Origin: Terriglobales bacterium
GTDB taxonomy: Bacteria > Acidobacteriota > Terriglobia > Terriglobales > Acidobacteriaceae
DNA length: 64,000 nucleotides
Direction: 5' to 3'
Assembly: GCA_035483045.1 (NCBI GenBank)
Contig: DATHQD010000035.1
Span: 35,921-99,920 of the forward strand
Under the pieces are notes generated by a model that was given only the letters and a program-made list of their open reading frames with translations, had not been told where the DNA came from and ran no database searches. Positions within the stretch are counted from its first letter, which is position 1. Every line of letters starts with the position of its first letter. Of the stretch, positions 4,819 to 56,637 are shown in pieces. Made by a program: the position numbers and the translations under genes.

Positions 4819-6396
4819 TTACTTCCCAATGCAAAACGTCCCGAAAATTAGATTAAGTATGTCGTCGCTAGTAGTCGCCCCAGTAATTTCGTCAAGTGGC
4901 CGCAACGCTCCATACAAATCAAGCAGCAACATTTCATGCGGAACGCGTAATCCCACCGCCCCAATCGCCGCCTCCAGCGCGCCCAGCGCATCACTAACAA
5001 GTTTCTGATGCCGAACGCTGGTAAGAAAACCAGCCTCCGCCTGCCCACCAGGATCCCCACCGAGATGCCCCAAAATGGCCGCCCGCAACTCAGCAATCCC
5101 CGCCCCACTAACCGCCGAAGTAGAAATCCGCACCACCGGCTCACCCGCCAAACCCACATCCAAACATTCACCGTCGCCCGCCACGTGCCCACCGTCGCCC
5201 GCCAAACTCACGTAGGGGCAGACGCCCTCGTCTGCCCGAGCCGGGCGAAGCCCGGCAGCGCTCTCCCCCAATCCGCCAATAAGATCGCTCTTGTTCTCGA
5301 CAACAATCGCCGCTCGACCCGTAACCCGCCTGAGTAACTCCCTATCTTCCTCACTTACCACCTGCGAAGCATCAATAACCACTAGCACTAAGTCCGCGTC
5401 CGCCAGCGCCTCCATCGACTTCTTGATCCCTATACTCTCCGCTTCATCCAGTGCCCGCCGAATCCCAGCCGTGTCCACCAGTTCCACAGGAATTCCACCG
5501 ATCGCCACCGTCTCGCTCACTAGATCTCGCGTAGTCCCCGGCTGCGCCGTCACAATCGCTCGCTCCCGCTCCACCAGCCGATTAAACAAACTCGACTTCC
5601 CCACATTCGGACGCCCCACAATCGCCAGCGTCAGCCCCTCACGCACAATCTGTCCATACGCAAAACTAGCCGCCAGCTCCACCAGCGGCGTCTTCACCTG
5701 CCCGATGCGCTCCACAATCGTAGCGTCCGGAGCCACCGATACATCGTCGTCCGCAAAATCAATCCCCGCCTCCAGCAGCGCAATCAAATCCACCAACTTC
5801 TGCTTAATCGGCTTCAGCCGATTCGAAAGCGCGCCCTCCAGTTGCTGCGCCGCCACCTTAGCCTGAAAAAGCGTCTGCGAATCAATCAAATCCCGGACCG
5901 CCTCCGCCTGCGTCAAATCAATCCGCCCGTTAAGAAACGCGCGCATAGTAAATTCGCCCGGCTCCGCCAGCCGCGCCCCGCCAGCCATCGCCATCTCAAC
6001 AACATGCCGCAAAACCACCGGCGACCCATGCGCCGAAATCTCCACAATATCGTCGGTAGTATAAGAATGAGGCGCAGCAAAAAAAGTAACCACCACCTCA
6101 TCAATCCGCGATTGCGGTTCGATCAATACTCGCGTAGGGGCAGGTGTCCCCACCTGCTCAGCCGAGCGAAGCTCGGCAAAAAGGCCGGCGTCCGTAGAAA
6201 TCCCCGCGTCCGCTAAGCTCGGCCCGCCAGCCTCCACCAGATCACACCGAACCGCCCGTCCCGCTTCCCACTCCCGCCCGAGCCGCAGCATCCGACCCGC
6301 AATACCCCGCGCCTCCGGCCCCGCCAGCCGCACCACGCCAATCCCTCCGCGCCCCGGAGGCGTAGCAATCGCCACAATCGTGTCATCAAGATTCAT
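4819..6396 (-). CDS. mnmE: tRNA modification GTPase MnmE (TrmE), 525 aa with two in-frame REP-B-containing insertions
   Basis: N-terminus [20 protein letters not shown]-domain [12 protein letters not shown] and DTAGIR, C-terminal FCIGK. About 70 aa longer than the E. coli protein as I recall it (454 aa). Confidence 0.95.
5212..5256 (+). repeat. REP-B copy inside mnmE (forward)
   Basis: GTAGGGGCAGACGCCCTCGTCTGCCCGAGCCGGGCGAAGCCCGGC. Translated in the mnmE frame it reads [13 protein letters not shown]. Confidence 0.85.
6134..6177 (+). repeat. REP-B copy inside mnmE (forward)
   Basis: GTAGGGGCAGGTGTCCCCACCTGCTCAGCCGAGCGAAGCTCGGC. Translated in frame it reads [16 protein letters not shown]. Confidence 0.85.
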
Positions 6397-7347: not shown

Positions 7348-7821
7348 ATGCAGAAGTCTGACATCGAAGTAAGAGAAAAGACACGCGTAGAGCCTGCCCT
7401 GAGCTTGTCGAAGGGTGCCCACGCTCGCCCATCTCGCGTAGGGGCAGGTGCCCTCACCTGCCCGGCCGAGCGCAAGCTCGGCCCCCGCCAAGTAGCCCTG
7501 GCCCTCCTCCAACTCTACAAGCGCTGGATTTCCCCAGCCCTGCCACCCTCCTGCCGCTACGTCCCGACCTGCTCCGAATACGCAATGGAAGCAGTCGAAC
7601 GCTATGGCGCACTTCGCGGCGGATTACTAGCACTCTGGCGCTTACTACGCTGCCACCCCTTCGCCAAAGGCGGACTGGATCCCGTAGTTACAAAAACTCT
7701 GTCATCCCGACCGAAGCGGATCATCGCGAAAGCGATGATCTGCGCAGCGGAGGGACCTTGCGTCTCCCCCCGCCTATATCTAGACGTCAACCATTCAACC
7801 AAAGAAATGACGAGCAACTGA
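7348..7821 (+). CDS. yidD: membrane protein insertion efficiency factor YidD with REP-derived N- and C-terminal extensions
   Basis: The core (LYKRWISPALPPSCRYVPTCSEYAMEAV..RCHPFAKGGLDPV) spans about 7486-7686. Upstream of the core the only in-frame starts are ATG 7348 and TTG 7405. Confidence 0.75.
   Translation: MQKSDIEVREKTRVEPALSLSKGAHARPSRVGAGALTCPAERKLGPRQVALALLQLYKRWISPALPPSCRYVPTCSEYAMEAVERYGALRGGLLALWRLLRCHPFAKGGLDPVVTKTLSSRPKRIIAKAMICAAEGPCVSPRLYLDVNHSTKEMTSN
7387..7482 (+). repeat. REP-B long+short composite (forward) inside the yidD 5-prime region
   Basis: GTAGAGCCTGCCCTGAGCTTGTCGAAGGGTGCCC...GTAGGGGCAGGTGCCCTCACCTGCCCGGCCGAGCGCAAGCTCGGC. Confidence 0.85.
7700..7762 (+). repeat. 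REP-C variant (forward) inside the yidD 3-prime region
   Basis: TGTCATCCCGACCGAAGCGGATCATCGCGAAAGCGATGATCTGCGCAGCGGAGGGACCTTGCG. Confidence 0.75.
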
Positions 7822-7822
7822 A

Positions 7823-9643
7823 TTGGCCGAATTTAACAATCCTCAACAAGAACCCGGCATGGAGCGCAGACTCCTCATCGTCTTCGCCCTGACCTTCCTC
7901 GTCATCATGCTCTTCCAGCCGCTAGTGAAAAAGTACGGCCCGCAACCGCCTGCAAAGCAGGAAATCACGCAACCCGCCGCCCAGAATCAAACGCAATCGC
8001 CAGTCACAACTCAGCCGACGCCACAGTCTCCCGCGCCCACCACGGCTGCATCAAAGAAATCCGAAACTCCCGTCCAAGCGACCGCTGAATTCGACACCGT
8101 CATCGAAAACGACGCCTACCGCATCGTCTTCACTAATCGCGGAGCTCGCGTTAAATCCTGGGTTCTGAAAAAATATACCGACGACAAAGGCGGCCAGCTC
8201 GAACTGGTGAACACTGCCGCCTCCGAGAAATACGGCTACCCGCTCACTCTCTGGACCTACGATGAATCTCTGCGCAACAAAATAAATTCAGCCCTCTATG
8301 CAACGGCGCAGACTCAGGCGATAGGGATAGGGGAGTTTTCCGCCACAATCAATGTTGCCGCCAAAGGCGTTGCGCCTGCCAGTAATACTCTTGCTGCTCC
8401 GGTGGAAATTAAATTTGTCTACGACGATGGCGACGTCTCGGTCCAGAAGACCTTCACCTTCGATCGCACCAGCTACGTAATCGGCACCCAGACCACCGTC
8501 TATCAAAAAGGTGCCCAAGTCACCGCCTTCCCCATGTGGCCCGCCGGCTTCGGCGCCGATCTGACCGCCCCGCAATACGCGACCGCCCAGATCATGTATC
8601 AGAACAACGACAAGGTCGAGCGCCTGGCGATCAAGAAGATCAGCGGCAACGGCACCATCCCCGGCCCCTTCCAGTGGGGCGGAGTCTCCGATCAATATTT
8701 CGCCGCCGTATTCCTTCCACAAGATCAGCAGAATGCCGCGCTGGTCACGCTCCGCAACGCCATCGAAATTCCCCACAGCGCATCCGACAAACAACTCGAT
8801 AAGATCGACGTGCTAGGCGCAGCCGTTGGCAGCCTCCGCGGCCCCACCATTGCCCGCCTCTACGTCGGCCCCAAAGCTCTCACCGACCTCGAGTCCGTCT
8901 CCGTCCCCGGCATCACTGGAGCCGAACCCGATCTCCGTGCCATCATCGATTTCGGTTGGCTAGGCATCATCGCCCGCCCACTCTTCCTCTGGCTCAAGTG
9001 GATGCACACCTACGTTCATAACTGGGGCTGGGCAATCCTGCTGCAGACGCTCATCATTAATGCCGCGCTCCTCCCGCTCCGTCTCACCCAGATGAAGTCG
9101 ATGCTCAAAATGCAGCGCGTCGCGCCCCAGATCAAATCCATCCAGGAAAAATACAAAAAATACAGTCTGCGCGATCCCAAGAAAGCCGAGATGAACGAAG
9201 AGATTTCGGCGCTCTATAAGAAGGAAGGCGTCAATCCCGCCGGCGGCTGTCTCCCGCTGCTCATCCAGATGCCCTTCCTCTTCGCCTACTACCGCATGCT
9301 CAACGTAGCCATGGATCTCCGCCACGCCCCCTGGCTCTGGATCCACGACTTGTCTGCCGCCGATCCCTGGCACATTCTGCCCATCGCCATCATCGTCACC
9401 ATGTTCTTCATGCAGCGCATGACGCCCCAGGCCGGCATGGATCCAGCACAACAAAAAATGATGAACCTGATGATGCCCGGCATGCTCGGCTACATGAGTT
9501 GGTATCTCCCCGCCGGTCTAGGCCTATATTGGGCGATGGGCCAAGTCATAGGCATAGTGCAGCAAGCCGCTCTAAACCGCACCTCGCTAGGACGAGAAAT
9601 GCGAGAAATGATGGCCAAACGCGCCAGAAAAAAAGAAAAATAG
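7823..9643 (+). CDS. yidC: membrane protein insertase YidC
   Basis: 606 aa with an N-terminal TM, a large periplasmic domain, and a C-terminal core (KMQRVAPQIKSIQEKYK..GCLPLLIQMPF). The start is either TTG 7823 or ATG 7859. Confidence 0.93.
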   Translation: MAEFNNPQQEPGMERRLLIVFALTFLVIMLFQPLVKKYGPQPPAKQEITQPAAQNQTQSPVTTQPTPQSPAPTTAASKKSETPVQATAEFDTVIENDAYRIVFTNRGARVKSWVLKKYTDDKGGQLELVNTAASEKYGYPLTLWTYDESLRNKINSALYATAQTQAIGIGEFSATINVAAKGVAPASNTLAAPVEIKFVYDDGDVSVQKTFTFDRTSYVIGTQTTVYQKGAQVTAFPMWPAGFGADLTAPQYATAQIMYQNNDKVERLAIKKISGNGTIPGPFQWGGVSDQYFAAVFLPQDQQNAALVTLRNAIEIPHSASDKQLDKIDVLGAAVGSLRGPTIARLYVGPKALTDLESVSVPGITGAEPDLRAIIDFGWLGIIARPLFLWLKWMHTYVHNWGWAILLQTLIINAALLPLRLTQMKSMLKMQRVAPQIKSIQEKYKKYSLRDPKKAEMNEEISALYKKEGVNPAGGCLPLLIQMPFLFAYYRMLNVAMDLRHAPWLWIHDLSAADPWHILPIAIIVTMFFMQRMTPQAGMDPAQQKMMNLMMPGMLGYMSWYLPAGLGLYWAMGQVIGIVQQAALNRTSLGREMREMMAKRARKKEK

Positions 9644-14785: not shown

Positions 14786-14818
14786 CGCCTGCAGAAATCA
14801 CGCCCCCGCGAAAATCAC

Positions 14819-14886
14819 GTAGGGGCAGAGCCTGCCCTGAGCTTGCCGAAGGGTGCCCTCACCTGCCCAGCCGAGCAAAGCTCGGC
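14819..14886 (+). repeat. REP-B long form (forward)
   Basis: GTAGGGGCAGAGCCTGCCCTGAGCTTGCCGAAGGGTGCCCTCACCTGCCCAGCCGAGCAAAGCTCGGC. Confidence 0.85.
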
Positions 14887-14954
14887 AAATCCTTCGAGCC
14901 GCCGAAGTCCCCGCCCCGCTCAACTTTGCGTGCAGCTGAAACATTCCGCACGCC

Positions 14955-36870: not shown

Positions 36871-36905
36871 AAAGCGCAACGAAATAAAAGGATCGCAATG
36901 CTCGC

Positions 36906-36974
36906 GTAGGGGCAGAGCCTGCCCTGAGCTTGCCGAAGGGTGCCCTCACCTGCCCAGCCGAGCGCCAGCTCGGC
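36906..36974 (+). repeat. REP-B long form (forward)
   Basis: GTAGGGGCAGAGCCTGCCCTGAGCTTGCCGAAGGGTGCCCTCACCTGCCCAGCCGAGCGCCAGCTCGGC. Confidence 0.85.
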
Positions 36975-37034
36975 CGCACTCCGCGAGCTATCGCAAAAGC
37001 GCTAGATCGAATTTCGATTTACAAGCGAGCGCGC

Positions 37035-43604: not shown

Positions 43605-43664
43605 CCAGATACAACCCAACTCGCGCCGGGGACGGCCGCCCTCGGCCGTCAAAGCGAGGCTCAC

Positions 43665-43732
43665 GTAGGGGCAGAGCCTGCCCTGAGCTTGTCGAAGGGT
43701 GCCCTCGCCTGCCCAGCCGAGCAAAGCTCGAC
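43665..43732 (+). repeat. REP-B long form (forward)
   Basis: GTAGGGGCAGAGCCTGCCCTGAGCTTGTCGAAGGGTGCCCTCGCCTGCCCAGCCGAGCAAAGCTCGA. Confidence 0.85.
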
Positions 43733-43772
43733 TCCAGTTGTCACCGGCAAGATTTCAAACTCCTTTTTCCGC

Positions 43773-46145: not shown

Positions 46146-46217
46146 CCCCCAAAATCTCGAATTCGCCTTAACCCCACGCTCCGCTAAAATCATGCGAACG
46201 ACAAACGACCGCCCTCC

Positions 46218-47090
46218 ATGCAAACCGCCCGCATCTCCGCCCTACTAGAACCCTTCCTAATCCATCCGCTCTCCGAACAGCAGCTAAATCAAATATCGAT
46301 ATACATCGATCTATTGCAACGCTGGAACGCCCGCATCAACCTGACCGCCATCCGCACCGAAGAAGAAATAGTAACCCGCCACTTCGGCGAATCCCTATTC
46401 CTGGCCCGCCACGTATTTCCAAATGTGGAGCGGACACTCCTGTCCGCTGAAGCCAACTCCGCCGACATTCCGGCCCGGCCAATCTCCCGAAATCAATGTC
46501 ATCCTGAGCGGAGCCAGGGCATGCGCGAAGCCGATGCCACGGCGGAGTCGAAGGACCCCTACTCGACCAATCAAGCAACGCGCGCTATAGAAAAAGCAAG
46601 CCCGCCCGAGAGCGTAAAGGACACCCGAGATCTAAGCGGTTCAACTGGGTACTGGGTACCGGCTACTAGGTACTGTAAGGTCCTGGATATAGGCTCCGGA
46701 GCCGGATTCCCCGCTCTACCCCTAAAAATCTGGGCCCCTGAGATCCACCTCACCCTGATCGAATCCAACCACAAAAAATCCGCCTTCCTTAAAGAGGCAT
46801 CCCGAGCCCTTACATTCACTAACGTCAATATAATGGCCGAACGAACCGAAGCCCTCCTGGCACGCCCCGACCACCCCCAAGCCGAAGTAGTAACCCTAAG
46901 AGCAGTCGAACATTTCGAAGCCGTCCTCCCCCAGTCCGTCAGTTTCCTGGCCGCAAAAGCCACTCTAGCCCTTCTCATAGGAACGTCTCAACTCCGCTCC
47001 CTAACCATTCAAACCTCCATGAATTGGCAATCACCGATCCCCATACCCAGCTCAAATACCAGAGTGCTAATTATCGGACGAGCGAATTAG
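46218..47090 (+). CDS. rsmG: 16S rRNA (guanine527-N7)-methyltransferase RsmG (GidB), 290 aa with a ~85-aa in-frame repeat-derived insertion
   Basis: The N-terminal region (LLQRWNARINLTAIRTEEEIVTRHFGESL) and the SAM motif (KVLDIGSGAGFPALPLKI..LIESNHKK..VTLRAV) are separated by REP-D/REP-C-encoded sequence. Confidence 0.85.
   Translation: MQTARISALLEPFLIHPLSEQQLNQISIYIDLLQRWNARINLTAIRTEEEIVTRHFGESLFLARHVFPNVERTLLSAEANSADIPARPISRNQCHPERSQGMREADATAESKDPYSTNQATRAIEKASPPESVKDTRDLSGSTGYWVPATRYCKVLDIGSGAGFPALPLKIWAPEIHLTLIESNHKKSAFLKEASRALTFTNVNIMAERTEALLARPDHPQAEVVTLRAVEHFEAVLPQSVSFLAAKATLALLIGTSQLRSLTIQTSMNWQSPIPIPSSNTRVLIIGRAN
46425..46448 (+). repeat. REP-D inside rsmG (forward)
   Basis: GTGGAGCGGACACTCCTGTCCGCT, read in frame as VERTLLSA. 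Confidence 0.75.
46497..46562 (+). repeat. REP-C full inside rsmG (forward); last forward REP in the window
   Basis: TGTCATCCTGAGCGGAGCCAGGGCATGCGCGAAGCCGATGCCACGGCGGAGTCGAAGGACCCCTAC, read in frame as CHPERSQGMREADATAESKDPY. Confidence 0.85.
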
Positions 47091-47238
47091 TGGATAAATT
47101 GCCATTGCACAAACATAGAAGTGGAAAACGAGGCCAATTGTAGCGCAATAATGACATTATAAGTGGCGGATAAACGGGTAATGCACCTTGAGGCGCAACG
47201 CAGGTCGCACCATGAACTAGGCGAACATGAAGCGAAAA

Positions 47239-47254
47239 TGTTCCACGTGGAACA
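47239..47254. promoter_or_regulatory. parS: parS site 1 (perfect palindrome)
   Basis: TGTTCCACGTGGAACA, against the canonical TGTTNCACGTGAAACA. Confidence 0.85.
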
Positions 47255-47290
47255 TTCTTCCCGTCCTGAAGCAAAGCTAGTGCTCTTGTA

Positions 47291-47306
47291 TGTTCCATAT
47301 GGAACG
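47291..47306. promoter_or_regulatory. parS: parS site 2 (variant)
   Basis: TGTTCCATATGGAACG. Confidence 0.7.
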
Positions 47307-47347
47307 TATTGGTGGCCACCTACCGGGGGTTACTGATCAAGAAGTAG

Positions 47348-47363
47348 TGTTCCACATGGAACA
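47348..47363. promoter_or_regulatory. parS: parS site 3 (variant)
   Basis: TGTTCCACATGGAACA. Confidence 0.8.
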
Positions 47364-47447
47364 TTCATCGACTTGCATCATAATCCGGCATTGCTTTCGC
47401 CGGATCTTTCTAATATTCTGGCGCGCAATAGACAGAAAGAAACAATC

Positions 47448-48233
47448 ATGGGACGTGTCATTGCTGTTGCCAACCAGAAGGGTGGCGTTGGGAAGACTAC
47501 GACTGCCATCAACCTTGCAGCATCTTTAGCCGCCGCCGAAGTCAATACGTTGCTGGTTGACTGCGATCCGCAGTCCAACTCTACCAGTGGTCTTGGGTTG
47601 GTGAAGGATCCGGAACGGATCAGCATCTACGATGTTTTGATGGGGGCGGCTTCGGCTGAGGAGGCGCTTCAGCTTACCGAGCTCGAGCAACTTTGGCTGA
47701 TCCCTTCCCATAAGAACCTTATCGGGGCGAACCTCGAGCTGGTCTCGGCGGAGCGGAGGGAGTACCGTCTGCGCGATGCGCTCGCTCCGTTGCTTGATCG
47801 ATTTCAGTTCCTCGTGCTGGATTGTCCTCCGGCATTGGACCTTCTGACTTTGAATTCGCTGGTGGCGGCGGATGGAGTTTTGATCCCTATGCAGGCGGAG
47901 TACTTTGCTTTGGAGGGAGTGTCGGAGCTGCTCGATACTATAGAGAGGATACGGGTCGAGTTGAATCCTGGACTGGCCATCGAAGGCGTGGTGCTGACTA
48001 TGTTTGATGAGCGGACTAATCTAGCTCAGCAGGTGGCGGAGGAGTTGAAAAAATATTTTGGGGATAAGTTGTGCACCACTACGATCCCGCGGAACATACG
48101 GCTGGCGGAGGCTCCCAGTCATGGGCTGCCGGCGCTGGTGTATGACGTTCGGTCGAGGGGGGCGGAGAGTTATATACGGCTGGCTAAAGAGATTTTGGAT
48201 CGACAGGCGGGGGCAGCTCAGGGAGCCGCTTAG
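47448..48233 (+). CDS. parA: chromosome partitioning ATPase ParA/Soj
   Basis: MGRVIAVANQKGGVGKTTTAINLAASLA (deviant Walker A). Uses the internal ATG of track ORF 47373..48233. Confidence 0.95.
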   Translation: MGRVIAVANQKGGVGKTTTAINLAASLAAAEVNTLLVDCDPQSNSTSGLGLVKDPERISIYDVLMGAASAEEALQLTELEQLWLIPSHKNLIGANLELVSAERREYRLRDALAPLLDRFQFLVLDCPPALDLLTLNSLVAADGVLIPMQAEYFALEGVSELLDTIERIRVELNPGLAIEGVVLTMFDERTNLAQQVAEELKKYFGDKLCTTTIPRNIRLAEAPSHGLPALVYDVRSRGAESYIRLAKEILDRQAGAAQGAA

Positions 48234-48310
48234 ATTGATGATGCTAAATATTTATGTACATCGATATAAACTATAGGCTTGGACGGGTGTTCCGGTCGTG
48301 GCCGACAGTT

Positions 48311-48349
48311 CCCGCCCTTCCGCAAAGTGCGCGGAAGGATGGGGCACCC
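48311..48349 (-). repeat. REP-A (reverse); first reversed REP
   Basis: CCCGCCCTTCCGCAAAGTGCGCGGAAGGATGGGGCACCC. Confidence 0.8.
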
Positions 48350-48396
48350 ACTTTTAATTCAGCGAGAATGCGGCCGCCGCAGAAATTATGGCGGAG

Positions 48397-48462
48397 GTAG
48401 GGGTCCTTCGACTGCGCCACGGCATCCGCTTTGCGGATGATGTGGCTTCGCTCAGGATGACA
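48397..48462 (-). repeat. REP-C full (reverse)
   Basis: GTAGGGGTCCTTCGACTGCGCCACGGCATCCGCTTTGCGGATGATGTGGCTTCGCTCAGGATGACA. Confidence 0.85.
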
Positions 48463-48476
48463 GTTTTACGAGGGGA

Positions 48477-49577
48477 GTGATGATCACTATGGCGAATGTG
48501 GCGGCTGATTCGAAGAATTCGGAGAAGGTGGCGGAGAAGCGGCGGGCTTTGGGGCGAGGGTTGGAATCGCTTTTGCCTGGGCCGCGGGTTGTGATTGCTC
48601 CGCCCACCCTTCCGCAAAGTGCGCGGAAGGATGGGGCACCCGCGGAGAACAGTTCTCAGCTGTCAGTCGTCAGTTCTGAGGCTGCGAGTGCTGGTTCTCA
48701 GGCAGTCGTCGAACCTCCCGCGGGTGCGGTTGCTGGAACGGTGGCGCAGATACAGGCGGCGGCTTCGGGGCAGAGTGCTGACATGGGCGTGCAGTTATTG
48801 GCGATTGATTTGATTGAGCGGAATCCTTATCAGACGCGGTACGAATTTAAGAAAGAGGCGTTGGAGGAACTGAGCAGATCGATCAAGGCGCAGGGAGTGT
48901 TGCAGCCGATTGTGGTGCGTCCGGGGGCGGAGGGAAAGTTCGTACTGATTCTGGGCGAGCGGCGGTTGCGGGCTTCGATCCTGGCGGAGATGGCGACGAT
49001 CCCGGCGTTTGTGAGGCGGGTGTCGGAGCAACAAGCGGCGGAGATGACGCTGGTTGAGAACCTGCAGCGGCAGGATCTGAACTGCATAGAGCAAGCGGAG
49101 GCGTTCGCGACCTTGAGCACGCAATTCAAGATGACGCAGGAGGAGATTTCCGCGCGGGCTGGGATCTCGCGAGAGACGGTGACGAATTACATGCGGCTGC
49201 TGAACCTGCCGCACAGCGTGATTGGAGCGCTGCAGACGGGGAAGCTTTCGTATAGCCACGCGCGCGTGCTGTTGCAACTGCGGGACGATGCGGAGATCTG
49301 GAAACTGGCGGAGAAGGTGATGGAAGAGAAGCTGTCGGTGGGGAAACTTGAGGAGTTGGTGGTGGGGAGCGGGTTGCCGAGGCCGGGGTCGGTGCACAAG
49401 TCGGGCGGGGCGCGGTGGGTGGATCCGAATGTGAAGGCGGCGCAGAGGTCGCTTGAGGAAGTTTTGGGGATGCGGGTGCGGATTGCTGACCGTAGAGGTA
49501 GAGGGAAGATTTCGATTGAGTATGCGACGCTAGAGGATTTTGATCGGGTGGTGGGGATGCTTAAGGGGAAGGGGTAG
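48477..49577 (+). CDS. parB: chromosome partitioning protein ParB/Spo0J with an expanded, partly REP-encoded N-terminal linker
   Basis: RRALGRGLESLL .. LIERNPYQTRYEFKKEALEELSRSIKAQGVLQPIVVR..GERRLRA .. HTH. The start is one of GTG 48477, ATG 48480 or ATG 48489. Confidence 0.93.
   Translation: MMITMANVAADSKNSEKVAEKRRALGRGLESLLPGPRVVIAPPTLPQSARKDGAPAENSSQLSVVSSEAASAGSQAVVEPPAGAVAGTVAQIQAAASGQSADMGVQLLAIDLIERNPYQTRYEFKKEALEELSRSIKAQGVLQPIVVRPGAEGKFVLILGERRLRASILAEMATIPAFVRRVSEQQAAEMTLVENLQRQDLNCIEQAEAFATLSTQFKMTQEEISARAGISRETVTNYMRLLNLPHSVIGALQTGKLSYSHARVLLQLRDDAEIWKLAEKVMEEKLSVGKLEELVVGSGLPRPGSVHKSGGARWVDPNVKAAQRSLEEVLGMRVRIADRRGRGKISIEYATLEDFDRVVGMLKGKG
48602..48641 (-). repeat. REP-A inside parB (reverse)
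   Basis: GCCCACCCTTCCGCAAAGTGCGCGGAAGGATGGGGCACCC, read in frame as PPTLPQSARKDGAP. Confidence 0.85.
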
Positions 49578-50031: not shown

Positions 50032-50218
50032 ACTTCTAATGTATGTATCGCGGTCAGGAACGCCACATCGAGGATTTGGTCTTTTATCGCAGCGGTGAAC
50101 CGCTGCGCTGACCAAAAACCTGGTGCTAGAGCCACATTTTTCTTGGCGGGCTAGGGGGCTGTCCCACTTTTTACTCTGTTGGTTCTTCCTTTGATTTCGC
50201 GGGCTGAGGCTTAGTGGG

Positions 50219-50286
50219 GCCGAGCTTACGCTCGGCTGGGCAGGTGGGGGCGCCCTTTGACAAGCTCAGGCAGGCTCTGCCTCTAC
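50219..50286 (-). repeat. REP-B long form (reverse)
   Basis: GCCGAGCTTACGCTCGGCTGGGCAGGTGGGGGCGCCCTTTGACAAGCTCAGGCAGGCTCTGCCTCTAC. Confidence 0.85.
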
Positions 50287-50318
50287 GCGAGTTTGGCGGA
50301 GAGCCCGGGAGATCAAAA

Positions 50319-50970: not shown

Positions 50971-51257
50971 GGTGAGTTCTCCTTTGATTAGTTATCTGGT
51001 TATTGTTGTGGTTTGATTTCCAACTTAATTTCTTACGATCAGCGGCCGTCCGGACGAAGTGGCGGTGGTGCTTATTTTGGTAGGCCGGCGGCGACAAAGA
51101 ATCGCCGCGTTTGATTGAGTTGGCTGAGGGCAATCTCCATAATTATTTTCACTGTCTCTATATAAGAGGAGCGGGCGGACTGGAGACATCGGGTGGAGTA
51201 TGTATTTTGGGCGCATTATCCCGCAGGGGGATAGACGTCACGCGGAAGTAAGAGCTT

Positions 51258-51323
51258 GCGGGCTTCGCTCGCTGGGCAGGTGAGGGCACCCTTCGACAAG
51301 CTCAGGGCAGGCTCTGCCCCTAC
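51258..51323 (-). repeat. REP-B long form (reverse)
   Basis: GCGGGCTTCGCTCGCTGGGCAGGTGAGGGCACCCTTCGACAAGCTCAGGGCAGGCTCTGCCCCTAC. Confidence 0.85.
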
Positions 51324-51463
51324 GCGAGTGTGGCGGGGGATCTCGCACTCAAAAATAAATGACAGATGAAATTTGGTGGGCGGCGACGAGGGCGATTCAC
51401 TAACTGATACTTTGAGGGGTTGAGTTTTGGTATTGTCGCTGGACTGAAGATTTGTGAGGCGAT

Positions 51464-54769: not shown

Positions 54770-55307
54770 GAGGACCGCGAGGAGATTTGGGGTTATTCTC
54801 GTCCCCGGATATTCTGGTTGAAAAGGCGCCGGGTGGCCCACATCTCGTGTTCGCGAAGTATCCCCACTTCTCGCAAAGGACGCGAGAAATGGGGCACCCG
54901 GCCGTGTGGAGTAATAAACAAACAGGCCCGCAAACATAGCTTGAACCCTTCGCGAGAAGCGCAGGACGGACCACCTCAACCTCAGCATACGCCAGCGAAA
55001 AACCCCACTTCTCGCAAAGGACGCGAGAAATGGGGCACCCGGCGAGAAATGGGGCACCCGGCCGTGTCGACCGGTGATGCGAATGCTTCCTGGCGCAGGG
55101 TGGAGGGTTGTCCCTGGTTGAAAAGGTGCCAGGTGGCGCACATCTACCATTCGCGAAGTATCCCCACTTCTCGCAAAGAGCGCGAGAAATGGGGCACCCG
55201 GCCTATTTATTTAAGGGCTTTTGATTTGAACTCATGATGAGTCCGATCTCGTAGCAATGTTCATCCGTCACAGACATGACCTTGCATTGATGCGTAGGAT
55301 TTTATTC

Positions 55308-55946
55308 ATGCCTTGGGGCTTGAAGCGTTATTACGGCACCGGAAGCCTCCATTTCATCACCTGGAGCTGCTATCGACGCAGCCCACTGCTAGGCAGCCCC
55401 GCGCGACGCGACCTGGTACTTACTGCCCTCGAACTGATGCGCGTTCGCTATCGCTACGCCGTGATCGGATACGTGGTCATGCCCGAACACGTACATCTAT
55501 TGATTTCCGAACCTTTGATAGGCGATCCCTCGAAGATAATTCAGGCTGTGAAGCTGAGCGTCTCCCGGCGGCTGGCCATTGCGGGCGAATTCTCTGGCCG
55601 GTTCTGGCAGAGTCGCTTCTATGATTTCAATCTGTGGGGCCACCAGAAAGAGATTGAGAAACTGAAGTACATGCATCGCAATCCGGTGGTGCGCGGACTG
55701 GTGGCAAGCCCGGAGGATTGGCGGTGGAGCAGCTACCGATCCTATGCATACGGAGAAGCAGGATTAGTTCGGATCAACGACTGGACTTGGGGGAGGAGAA
55801 AATTCGATGGAGCGCTGGCTGAGGGTTGGTTGGTGTCGGCGAAAAGCCCCACTTCTCGCAAAGGACGCGAGAAATGGGGCACCCGGCTAGTCCGGAGGAT
55901 GGCTGTAGTAGCTACCGATTCTATGCTTACGGAGAGGCGGGATTAG
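55308..55946 (+). CDS. REP-associated tyrosine transposase (RAYT; IS200/IS605 TnpA-like Y1 HUH enzyme)
   Basis: HFITWSCYRR.., HUH motif PEHVHLLIS, catalytic-Tyr motif KYMHRNPVVRGLVASPEDWRWSSY. The ORF reads through a REP-A2 copy at its 3-prime end. Confidence 0.85.
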   Translation: MPWGLKRYYGTGSLHFITWSCYRRSPLLGSPARRDLVLTALELMRVRYRYAVIGYVVMPEHVHLLISEPLIGDPSKIIQAVKLSVSRRLAIAGEFSGRFWQSRFYDFNLWGHQKEIEKLKYMHRNPVVRGLVASPEDWRWSSYRSYAYGEAGLVRINDWTWGRRKFDGALAEGWLVSAKSPTSRKGREKWGTRLVRRMAVVATDSMLTERRD

Positions 55947-56073
55947 TTCGGATCAACGACTGGACTTGGTGGGAGGAGAAAATTCGATGGAGCGCTGGCT
56001 GAGGGGTGGATGGTGTCGGCGAAAAGCCCCACTTCTCGCAAAGGACGCGAGAAATGGGGCACCCGGCTAGTCC
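55711..56073. repeat. tandem duplication (~182 bp x 2) of the RAYT 3-prime end plus REP-A2
   Basis: Copy A is 55711-55893 and copy B is 55894-56073. Both contain GATTAGTTCGGATCAACGACTGGACTTGG..GAGAAAATTCGATGGAGCGCTGGCTGAGGG..REP-A2..GGCTAGTCC. Confidence 0.9.
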
Positions 56074-56190: not shown

Positions 56191-56637
56191 ATGAGCAGCG
56201 TACAAATCGAACAGAAGAGTTATGAGATGCCCCCGAAAGAGGGGATCAGCGTCGCGTGTTTTCTCACCGTCGCCGACCTTGAGCGATCGGCTCGCTACTA
56301 CGAAAAGGTCTTCGGCGCTCGCATTCTGACCATGGGTGACGGCAACGCGCCTCCATACCTTCAGTTGGCGAATATCTGGATGATTCTGAACGTTGGAGGC
56401 GGGCCGACTCCGGATAAGCCGACGGTAACGCTCAGCGTTCCCGACCCGAATCACATCAACAGCTTTATGAATTTCCGGGTTGCGGATATTCAAGCGTGCT
56501 ATCAATTATGGAAAAGTCGAGGGGCGGAGTTCATCACGCCACCGATACCCAAGTACGGCGAGATACGTTGCTACATCCGCGATCCTGACGGCTATATCAT
56601 CGAAGTCGGACAGAGCACTGACCTTACGTACGGTTAA
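56191..56637 (+). CDS. VOC (glyoxalase/bleomycin-resistance/dioxygenase) family protein
   Basis: FLTVADLERSARYYEKVFGA..CYIRDPDGYIIEVGQ. GGAGG lies 5 nt before ATG 56191. Longer starts at 56122 or 56131 are possible. Confidence 0.7.
   Translation: MSSVQIEQKSYEMPPKEGISVACFLTVADLERSARYYEKVFGARILTMGDGNAPPYLQLANIWMILNVGGGPTPDKPTVTLSVPDPNHINSFMNFRVADIQACYQLWKSRGAEFITPPIPKYGEIRCYIRDPDGYIIEVGQSTDLTYG

Follow-up and report, generated by a model that had tools for sequence, protein, structure and literature searches.

We analysed a 64,000-nucleotide stretch of DNA from a Terriglobales bacterium (Acidobacteriota), referred to here as the window, in which the mnmE gene carries two in-frame copies of a repetitive extragenic palindromic (REP) element, REP-B. 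The gene, coding for the tRNA modification GTPase MnmE (TrmE), lies at 4819–6396 on the minus strand, and is denoted WIN in comparisons with the relatives L001, L002, L003, L081 and L082. As an earlier note on this DNA had stated, its open reading frame (ORF) is intact, with 525 uninterrupted codons specifying a 525-residue product that has full-length Pfam matches to TrmE_N (1–117 of 117), MMR_HSR1 (2–113 of 113), and MnmE_helical (1–211 of 211). The three-part architecture is present – an N-terminal TrmE_N domain and a helical domain that is interrupted by a G domain – and the best solved relatives are MnmE/TrmE structures (1xzp, 3geh, 9hip, and 3gee). The characteristic motifs are all intact (G1 GRPNVGKS, G2 GTTRD, G3 DTAG, G4 NKSD, and the C-terminal FCIGK), and almost every residue in them is either invariant or conserved at 90% or more among 120 relatives. 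The ratio of nonsynonymous to synonymous substitution rates (dN/dS) is 0.10–0.15 relative to L001, L002, L081, L082, and L003 (Nei-Gojobori, 441 ungapped codons). The gene is under purifying selection and still looks functional, and catalytic activity with MnmG in (c)mnm5U34 formation is predicted. The earlier note had allowed for a pseudogene accompanied by a second, working copy, and no second mnmE is present in the 64-kb window. MnmE is highly conserved but in E. coli K-12 is, as a rule, not strictly essential.

The first REP-B copy is in the turn between two beta-strands of the N-terminal domain (the N-site, residues about 57–95), the first of these strands having the sequence CDLVE. DNA alignment to the empty sites of L001 and L003 defines an in-frame insertion of 114 nt, or 38 codons, at 6114–6227 (minus strand), with a length surplus over the empty sites of exactly 114 nt, a multiple of three, such that the frame is unbroken as previously claimed. 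The insertion of extra residues was thus correctly recognized earlier, but its extent was not: it had been given as 6109–6225 and about 35 residues, and the REP core itself contributes just 16. The translations reported for 6109–6225 and 6130–6177 (minus strand) are exact. Protein comparison shows a turn of three amino acids at the N-site in L001/P0007 and L003, and structure comparison shows only a short turn in the MnmE proteins of E. coli, T. maritima, Nostoc, and Chlorobium. The shorter E. coli segment given in the earlier note is borne out by 9hip_A, which has 19 residues where the window protein has 58 (query 37–96, chain 37–57).

Within this insertion, positions 6134–6177 form an intact REP-B unit on the plus strand, antisense to mnmE, scoring 77.6 bits with a covariance model and on par with intergenic copies; its identification as a REP-B double hairpin read from the opposite strand therefore stands. 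The unit begins with GTAG (6134–6137), followed by a 9-bp hairpin 1 (6138–6146, loop 6147–6150, 6151–6159; GGGCAGGTG / TCCC / CACCTGCTC, with one G-T pair), one spacer base, and a 7-bp hairpin 2 (6161–6167, loop 6168–6170, 6171–6177; GCCGAGC / GAA / GCTCGGC). It folds as two hairpins with an energy of -16.6 kcal/mol (z = -4.9). Because the core encodes only 16 of the 38 inserted residues, the remainder must be accounted for separately, and consists of flanks and what seems to be a decayed second unit in the same orientation (6194–6223, plus strand), in which GTAG (6194–6197) is retained, hairpin 1 is lost, and a hairpin-2 remnant persists at 6208–6223. This remnant lies upstream of the intact unit in the gene sense, reads GCCGAGCTTAGCGGAC on the gene strand, matches hairpin 2 at 13 of 17 positions, and has the 9-mer GCCGAGCTT in common with the intact hairpin 2; it is this 9-mer, together with the GTAG, that suggests a REP origin for 6194–6223. 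The remnant is kept in L081 and L082 as the peptide SLADAGIS. The N-site insert is thus REP-derived.

Other kinds of element were considered for the N-site. No target-site direct repeat flanks the 114-nt insert, and a miniature inverted-repeat transposable element was ruled out, there being no target duplication and no terminal inverted repeats, with two internal hairpins instead. Intein- or intron-like removal was also rejected, as 38 residues is too short, and nothing suggestive of an intein or self-splicing intron was noticed, no dedicated search having been made.

A second REP-B copy in the same gene, missed by the earlier note, lies within the G domain. Here, the loop that joins the G4 motif NKSD to the G5 strand ISTSA (the G-site; residues 373–423, positions 5128–5280, minus strand) is 51 residues long versus 19 in L001, and alignment of the protein to solved structures breaks at residues 379–424. 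The unit belongs to a variant subfamily and occupies 5212–5256 on the plus strand, again antisense to mnmE (75.3 bits, -21.3 kcal/mol), with GTAG at 5212–5215, hairpin 1 at 5216–5224/5229–5237, and hairpin 2 at 5240–5246/5250–5256. Both stems are altered compensatorily, to GGGCAGACG/CGTCTGCCC and GCCGGGC/GCCCGGC, and the frame of the large hairpin is shifted relative to the N-site copy because the spacer is one base longer. Beside the unit, tandem duplications of its 5′ flank (about 5140–5207, plus strand, in which CCCGCCAAAC and CACCGTCGCCCGCCA are repeated) add approximately 19 in-frame codons, and contribute to the greater loop length relative to L001; they are window-specific, being absent from L001, L002, L003, L081, and L082. 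A conserved GTPase can therefore bear some 70 extra repeat-derived residues in two loops under purifying selection. There are no terminator-like sites on the mnmE sense strand at either REP, and matches elsewhere are at chance level; a role for the REPs as intrinsic terminators inside mnmE was discarded on these grounds.

REP-B is a dispersed, structured repeat family, with a unit comprising a GTAG tag, a 9-bp hairpin, and then a 7-bp hairpin. A degenerate pattern search found eight copies in the window and none in 100 shuffles, and a covariance model built from nine window copies found 16, of which 11 are strong (71–84 bits) and the other five weaker or composite. None of the nine aligned window copies departs from the GTAG. 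When 84 copies, drawn from the window and from related loci, are taken together, stem positions are paired 96.7% of the time, and there are 135 double-sided compensatory changes, a number reached in none of 500 shuffles and approached by no slid control; the 9-bp and 7-bp hairpins fold with z = -4.0 to -4.9. Thirteen of the 16 window copies are at gene boundaries (intergenic) and three are inside genes. They are singletons or same-orientation tandems, and the inverted pairs known as BIMEs or REPINs were not seen among them. Four of the six reading frames of REP-B have no stop codon. No Rfam family matches anywhere in the window at gathering thresholds.

Some REP-B units are composites, at 14811–14891, 36898–36979, 43657–43737, 50214–50294, and 51253–51331, and also at 7390–7420. 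In these, a second module (about GAGCCTGCCCTGAGCTTGTCGAAGGGTGCCC, encoding the peptide PALSLSKGA or PFDKLRAG) is nested in or beside hairpin 1, which suggests modular recombination between repeat families.

The predicted structure of the window protein places both inserts in loops. A first AlphaFold run with 30 close relatives was unusable, and the results given here are from a second run with 120 relatives. In this model, residues 57–96 and 375–419 are coil with a predicted local distance difference test (pLDDT) score of 24–30, and of 24–28 for the G-site loop, against a whole-model mean of 58. The N-site insert falls between strands 48–54 and 97–106, and the G-site insert between strands 363–368 and 422–425, with the flanking strands at pLDDT about 75–80. 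Superposition of the modelled N-domain on that of T. maritima TrmE (1xzq_B) gives a TM-score of 0.84 at 2.6 Å, using 153 columns for a 117-residue target; because about 36 of these columns are extra, the N-site insert is an unaligned excursion. Both inserts are thus predicted to be unstructured loops between conserved strands.

To place these inserts in an evolutionary context we used the 120 closest protein clusters (70–93% identity, from Terriglobales metagenome bins) and a set of 80 genome loci, the latter biased in that one search pattern was REP-derived and the scoring favours common inserts. MnmE ranges from 439 to 536 residues among the clusters, with forms of 457 residues lacking both inserts. 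The N-site loop is 3–58 residues long (median 38) and is at least 25 residues in 81 of 103 clusters, with only 3–10 residues in several Terriglobales relatives; the G-site loop is 14–62 residues long (median 30) and is at least 30 residues in 74 of 114. In the 80 loci, the covariance model matches about 34 times in the N-site and about 27 times in the G-site, with units running in the gene direction as well as against it. All four stop-free REP-B frames occur among the orthologs, as the peptides AELRSAGQVGAPAPTR, (E/D)EG.(R/C)PY, HVGTAAPGCPAERSSA, and GDGRLARPSRAEPG, and peptides of other repeat families, such as GAGAPARET, are also found at these loops. In the alignment of orthologs that the earlier note had proposed as a check, the insert is absent from L001/P0007 and L003, and those orthologs that have the segment, including L081 and L082, carry recognizable REP hairpins.

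The histories of the two sites can be followed among the closest relatives. A neighbour-joining tree of conserved codons groups WIN with L001, L081, and L002, with L082 outside these and then L003. Since the N-site insert is common to WIN, L081, and L082 with the same flanks, it is older than these splits given this tree, and was probably lost again in L001 and L002; with position and frame unchanged, it is present in L081 (JGI), L082 (ENA), P0002, P0005, P0006, and P0008. All that is left at the G-site of L001 and L081 is PYVSLAG (the REP foot and 5′ flank), showing that the hairpins were deleted in frame, and L082 and L003 have an extra module nested between the two hairpins. Divergence of the REP core does not track that of the gene: WIN and L082 differ by 6% in the core and 16% gene-wide (synonymous divergence, dS, 0.54), and WIN and L081 by 22% in the core and 8.6% gene-wide (dS 0.26), with the entire hairpin 1 stem swapped compensatorily between WIN and L081. 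Together, the lack of correspondence and the stem swap suggest that the core was replaced or converted by other REP copies, rather than drifting by point mutation. Related Terriglobales genomes usually have both loops expanded by REP-derived sequence, and in-frame deletion, tandem duplication, and exchange of one hairpin subfamily for another are all seen among them; the dozens of genomes with full, empty, remnant, duplicated, and swapped versions provide a natural time series of REPs in coding DNA.

Generality beyond mnmE was judged from two proteins, YidD (window) and YidC (related loci). In-frame REP-B is not unique to mnmE in this lineage, as the yidC genes of several related genomes have it (L011:1637–1693, L012:1667–1714, L033:1607–1660, L061:1205–1261, L065:1162–1218, and L014:1738–1794), at a site in the linker that follows transmembrane helix 1 (PQPPAK.ES-AAE.RSAGQPGAAVPTQ). 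The window yidC (7823–9643) has no insert at that linker. In the window yidD (7348–7821), a REP-B copy lies at 7438–7482 (plus strand), and the protein appears to have a REP-encoded N-terminal extension. YidD starts as MKSLALGLL... in most relatives, and that methionine is gone in the window and in L001; the window ORF starts at an ATG immediately behind the rnpA stop codon (7348), and its frame runs on through a nested repeat module (EPALSLSKGA), REP-B (SRVGAGALTCPAERKLG), and then the Pfam YidD domain (residues 48–113). A peptide search for other host proteins with the four open REP-B frames concatenated gave six candidates, none of them informative.

The orientation of REP-B follows the strand asymmetry of the window. 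GC skew is very strong (|0.2–0.45| per kb); on the plus strand it lies between -0.16 and -0.30 over the first 47 kb or so and is mostly positive thereafter, with the sign switching at about 47.5 kb, at rsmG-parA-parB (46188–49577). From the presence of these genes at the switch and of rpmH-rnpA-yidD-yidC-mnmE, the region is probably origin-proximal, with the switch probably corresponding to the replication origin. The skew does not merely follow gene orientation, an explanation ruled out because mnmE (minus) and yidC (plus) show the same strand-wise skew, with third-position skews of +0.62 and -0.35 on their respective sense strands. Left of the switch, all 13 REP-B matches are plus-strand matches; right of it, the matches (50214, 51253, and a weak match at 56267) are on the minus strand. 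In related loci, all 50 of the plus-strand matches are in negative local skew and 14 of the 21 minus-strand matches are in positive skew, such that 64 of 71 follow the same rule. In both L010 and L011 the skew sign switches just downstream of mnmE (about 4500) and REP-B orientation flips together with it, with four reversed copies in L010 and three in L011 within 3 kb after the switch; the strand and position of mnmE relative to the presumed origin therefore differ between lineages. The GTAG strand of REP-B is the C-rich strand, irrespective of the orientation of the host gene, and the composition of the repeat itself does not drive the polarity, since G and C are equal by count in its consensus. 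By the usual convention, the C-rich strand is the lagging strand. Because REP-B orientation follows strand asymmetry and flips with the skew, it fits single-strand, replication-coupled insertion, and this agreement makes the fork-coupled, single-strand spread of REPs directly testable in this lineage.

The only ORF in the window resembling a Y1 transposase or REP-associated tyrosine transposase (RAYT) is at about 55310–55800 (Pfam Y1_Tnp E = 2.4e-9; motifs HVH and YMHRNP). It is flanked (54862–56064) by five same-strand copies of a non-GTAG palindrome, CCCCACTTCTCGCAAAG..CGCGAGAAATGGGGCACCC, three upstream and two downstream, and we rejected it as evidence for REP-B mobilization on account of its association with another repeat family. 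The ORF and its flanking palindromes form an REPtron-like unit, and the ORF has a tandem duplication at its 3′ end (about 55715–55830 and 55895–56010). A peptide of the flanking repeat, REKWGT, recurs in the MnmE G-site of L056.

We conclude, with a probability of roughly 85%, that a REP-type mobile palindrome was inserted in frame in two permissive MnmE loops of a functional gene, and subsequently underwent turnover in place. REP-B would have been delivered through a single-strand-DNA, replication-coupled mechanism of the RAYT/Y1-transposase kind, with selection presumably retaining only in-frame, stop-free insertions in loops tolerant of additional residues. Once seeded, the sites may have evolved further by REP insertion beside existing units, subfamily conversion, slippage duplication, and in-frame deletion. 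The encoded segment is most likely a neutral passenger loop rather than a functional module. Several observations weigh against these conclusions. There is no REP-B-flanked RAYT in the 64-kb window, the sole Y1_Tnp ORF being flanked by a different palindrome, and the same-orientation singletons of REP-B are unlike the inverted doublets (BIME/REPIN) typical of RAYT-mobilized REPs. Seven minus-strand REP-B matches in related loci lie in weakly negative skew, all with |skew| of 0.10 or less, and most genes to the left of the window switch (about 6400–37000, with rpmH, rnpA, yidD, and yidC included) are on the C-rich strand, which is atypical. The AlphaFold models are only moderate (mean pLDDT 50 and 58 in the two runs), limited by shallow alignments. 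Finally, target preference or function, instead of tolerance, could explain why these two loops are so often occupied across the clade.

This last point leads to an explanation by exaptation, in which REPs are kept as mRNA hairpins acting in translation or stability, as DNA structures near the origin, or as functional loops, with mnmE as a preferred landing pad. Most relatives are expanded at the N-site, both loops have been hit independently and in both orientations, and about 61 of the 87 covariance-model matches in the 80 loci are inside mnmE, which makes up only about a fifth of each locus. The mnmE hairpins (75–78 bits) are as intact as intergenic ones, and the 6% core difference between WIN and L082 reflects far greater conservation than at synonymous sites. 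The core conservation, however, is equally explained by conversion from other genomic copies, as in the L081 stem swap, and the match counts derive from the biased locus set, in which many matches are orthologous and hence not independent. The lineage peptides are wholly different – using four frames, two orientations, and several repeat families – and because of this no protein-level function is conserved; moreover, both inserts have been purged from L001 (P0007), whose gene is otherwise conserved. We therefore regard exaptation as unlikely. The possibility that the segment is an ancestral Terriglobales MnmE loop, with its REP likeness secondary or with the genomic REPs derived from the gene, is highly improbable and already largely refuted: the sharing of the N-site insert by WIN, L081, and L082 at dS values up to 0.54 does make it older than the closest species splits, and its absence from L001 and L002 is probably a secondary loss, but near-identical REP-B units are present at 13 or more intergenic places in the window alone, related genomes have the unit at the same loop in the opposite orientation and in other frames and registers, and the site is a short turn in E. 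coli, T. maritima, Nostoc, and Chlorobium, as well as one of 3–10 residues in several Terriglobales. We give almost no credence to mis-assembly across a repeat, or to a decaying gene with another working copy. A metagenome-type assembly is the probable source of the window, and repeats are easily misassembled, but the insert is not an assembly artefact because it recurs, with neither its position nor its frame changed, in the independent JGI and ENA assemblies of L081 and L082, and also in those of P0002, P0005, P0006, and P0008; for decay, the uninterrupted 525 codons, the low dN/dS, and the lack of a second mnmE in the 64 kb all argue otherwise.

In-frame insertion of a mobile REP with later turnover, the interpretation we favour, has consequences beyond mnmE. 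REP-encoded peptides inflate and diversify protein lengths in Acidobacteriota, and may mislead annotation and alignment. We also advance, tentatively and as a doubtful extension, the proposal that a replication-polarized REP family across Terriglobales lands preferentially in the two MnmE loops, the YidC linker following the first transmembrane helix, and the N-terminus of YidD, rather than these sites being simply tolerant, and that REP units there undergo continual insertion, subfamily conversion, duplication, and in-frame trimming. If true, REPs would systematically supply new loops and N-termini to conserved housekeeping proteins near the origin, and the strand polarity of singletons would be direct genomic evidence for fork-coupled, single-strand REP mobilization.

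The classic case of in-frame palindromic repeats is that of the Rickettsia palindromic elements (RPE-1 and relatives), which were reportedly found by Ogata et al. in 2000 to be inserted in frame into conserved functional protein genes. RPE-1 is about 100–150 bp long and resides in reduced obligate intracellular genomes, and the RPE inserts are thought to be surface-exposed and compatible with the protein fold. REP-B is similarly a selfish palindromic repeat in frame in conserved functional genes, but it is shorter, unrelated in sequence, GTAG-tagged, and strand-polarized; we know of no report of a GTAG tag or replication-strand polarity for RPE-1.

A closer parallel is provided by the REPs for which GTAG- and CGTC-tagged superfamilies have been defined (Di Nocera, De Gregorio, Rocco 2013; PMC3733652), in a study that also cites the Rickettsia elements. 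These REPs are mostly intergenic, but some lie wholly inside known genes, in frame, as single or grouped units encoding 20–82 residues and sometimes at two sites per gene; Xanthomonas recB orthologs have different REPs at about the same site, and the intragenic REPs were proposed to be neutral since they are in flexible loops (PMC3733652). REP-B shares the 5′ GTAG, the mostly intergenic location, the in-frame copies, and the two sites in one gene, and differs in being a two-hairpin module occurring as same-orientation singletons, not head-to-head dimers, although single REP units are also listed in that study, so that inverted pairing is common but not obligatory. In the present case, many species are occupied at the same two loops, with turnover and strand polarity. 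Neither mnmE nor Acidobacteriota appears in the text, supplement, or intragenic list of PMC3733652, and the other papers searched contained no earlier report of a REP in mnmE or in Acidobacteriota coding genes.

REP-B also resembles the REP/BIME/REPIN systems (PMC3333891, PMC3116915, PMC8266576) in having many copies, mostly outside genes, with a 5′ GTAG beside a GC-rich stem-loop, but unlike those mobilized with a RAYT it forms no inverted pairs, and the RAYT-like gene of the window is flanked by a different repeat. Strict REP orientation relative to strand asymmetry is not mentioned in PMC3733652, PMC3116915, PMC3333891, or PMC8266576. Y1/RAYT enzymes act on single-stranded DNA, with use of the lagging-strand template proposed (PMC3333891, PMC6006769), and the orientation of IS200/IS605 elements correlates with replication direction, as should be the case if they insert into single-stranded DNA at the fork (PMC6006769). 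REP-B shows a comparable polarity, observed as a correlation with GC skew rather than as a demonstrated mechanism, but it has neither a transposase gene of its own nor the left-end and right-end structures of these insertion sequences. The mnmE gene of this soil acidobacterium thus clearly adds a new case to a phenomenon known from other bacteria, and specialists would find the series of insertion states and the polarity useful. In-frame REPs in genes were already known; what exceeds the published accounts consulted is the repeated, lineage-wide occupancy and turnover of two loops, together with the strict polarity of singleton units.

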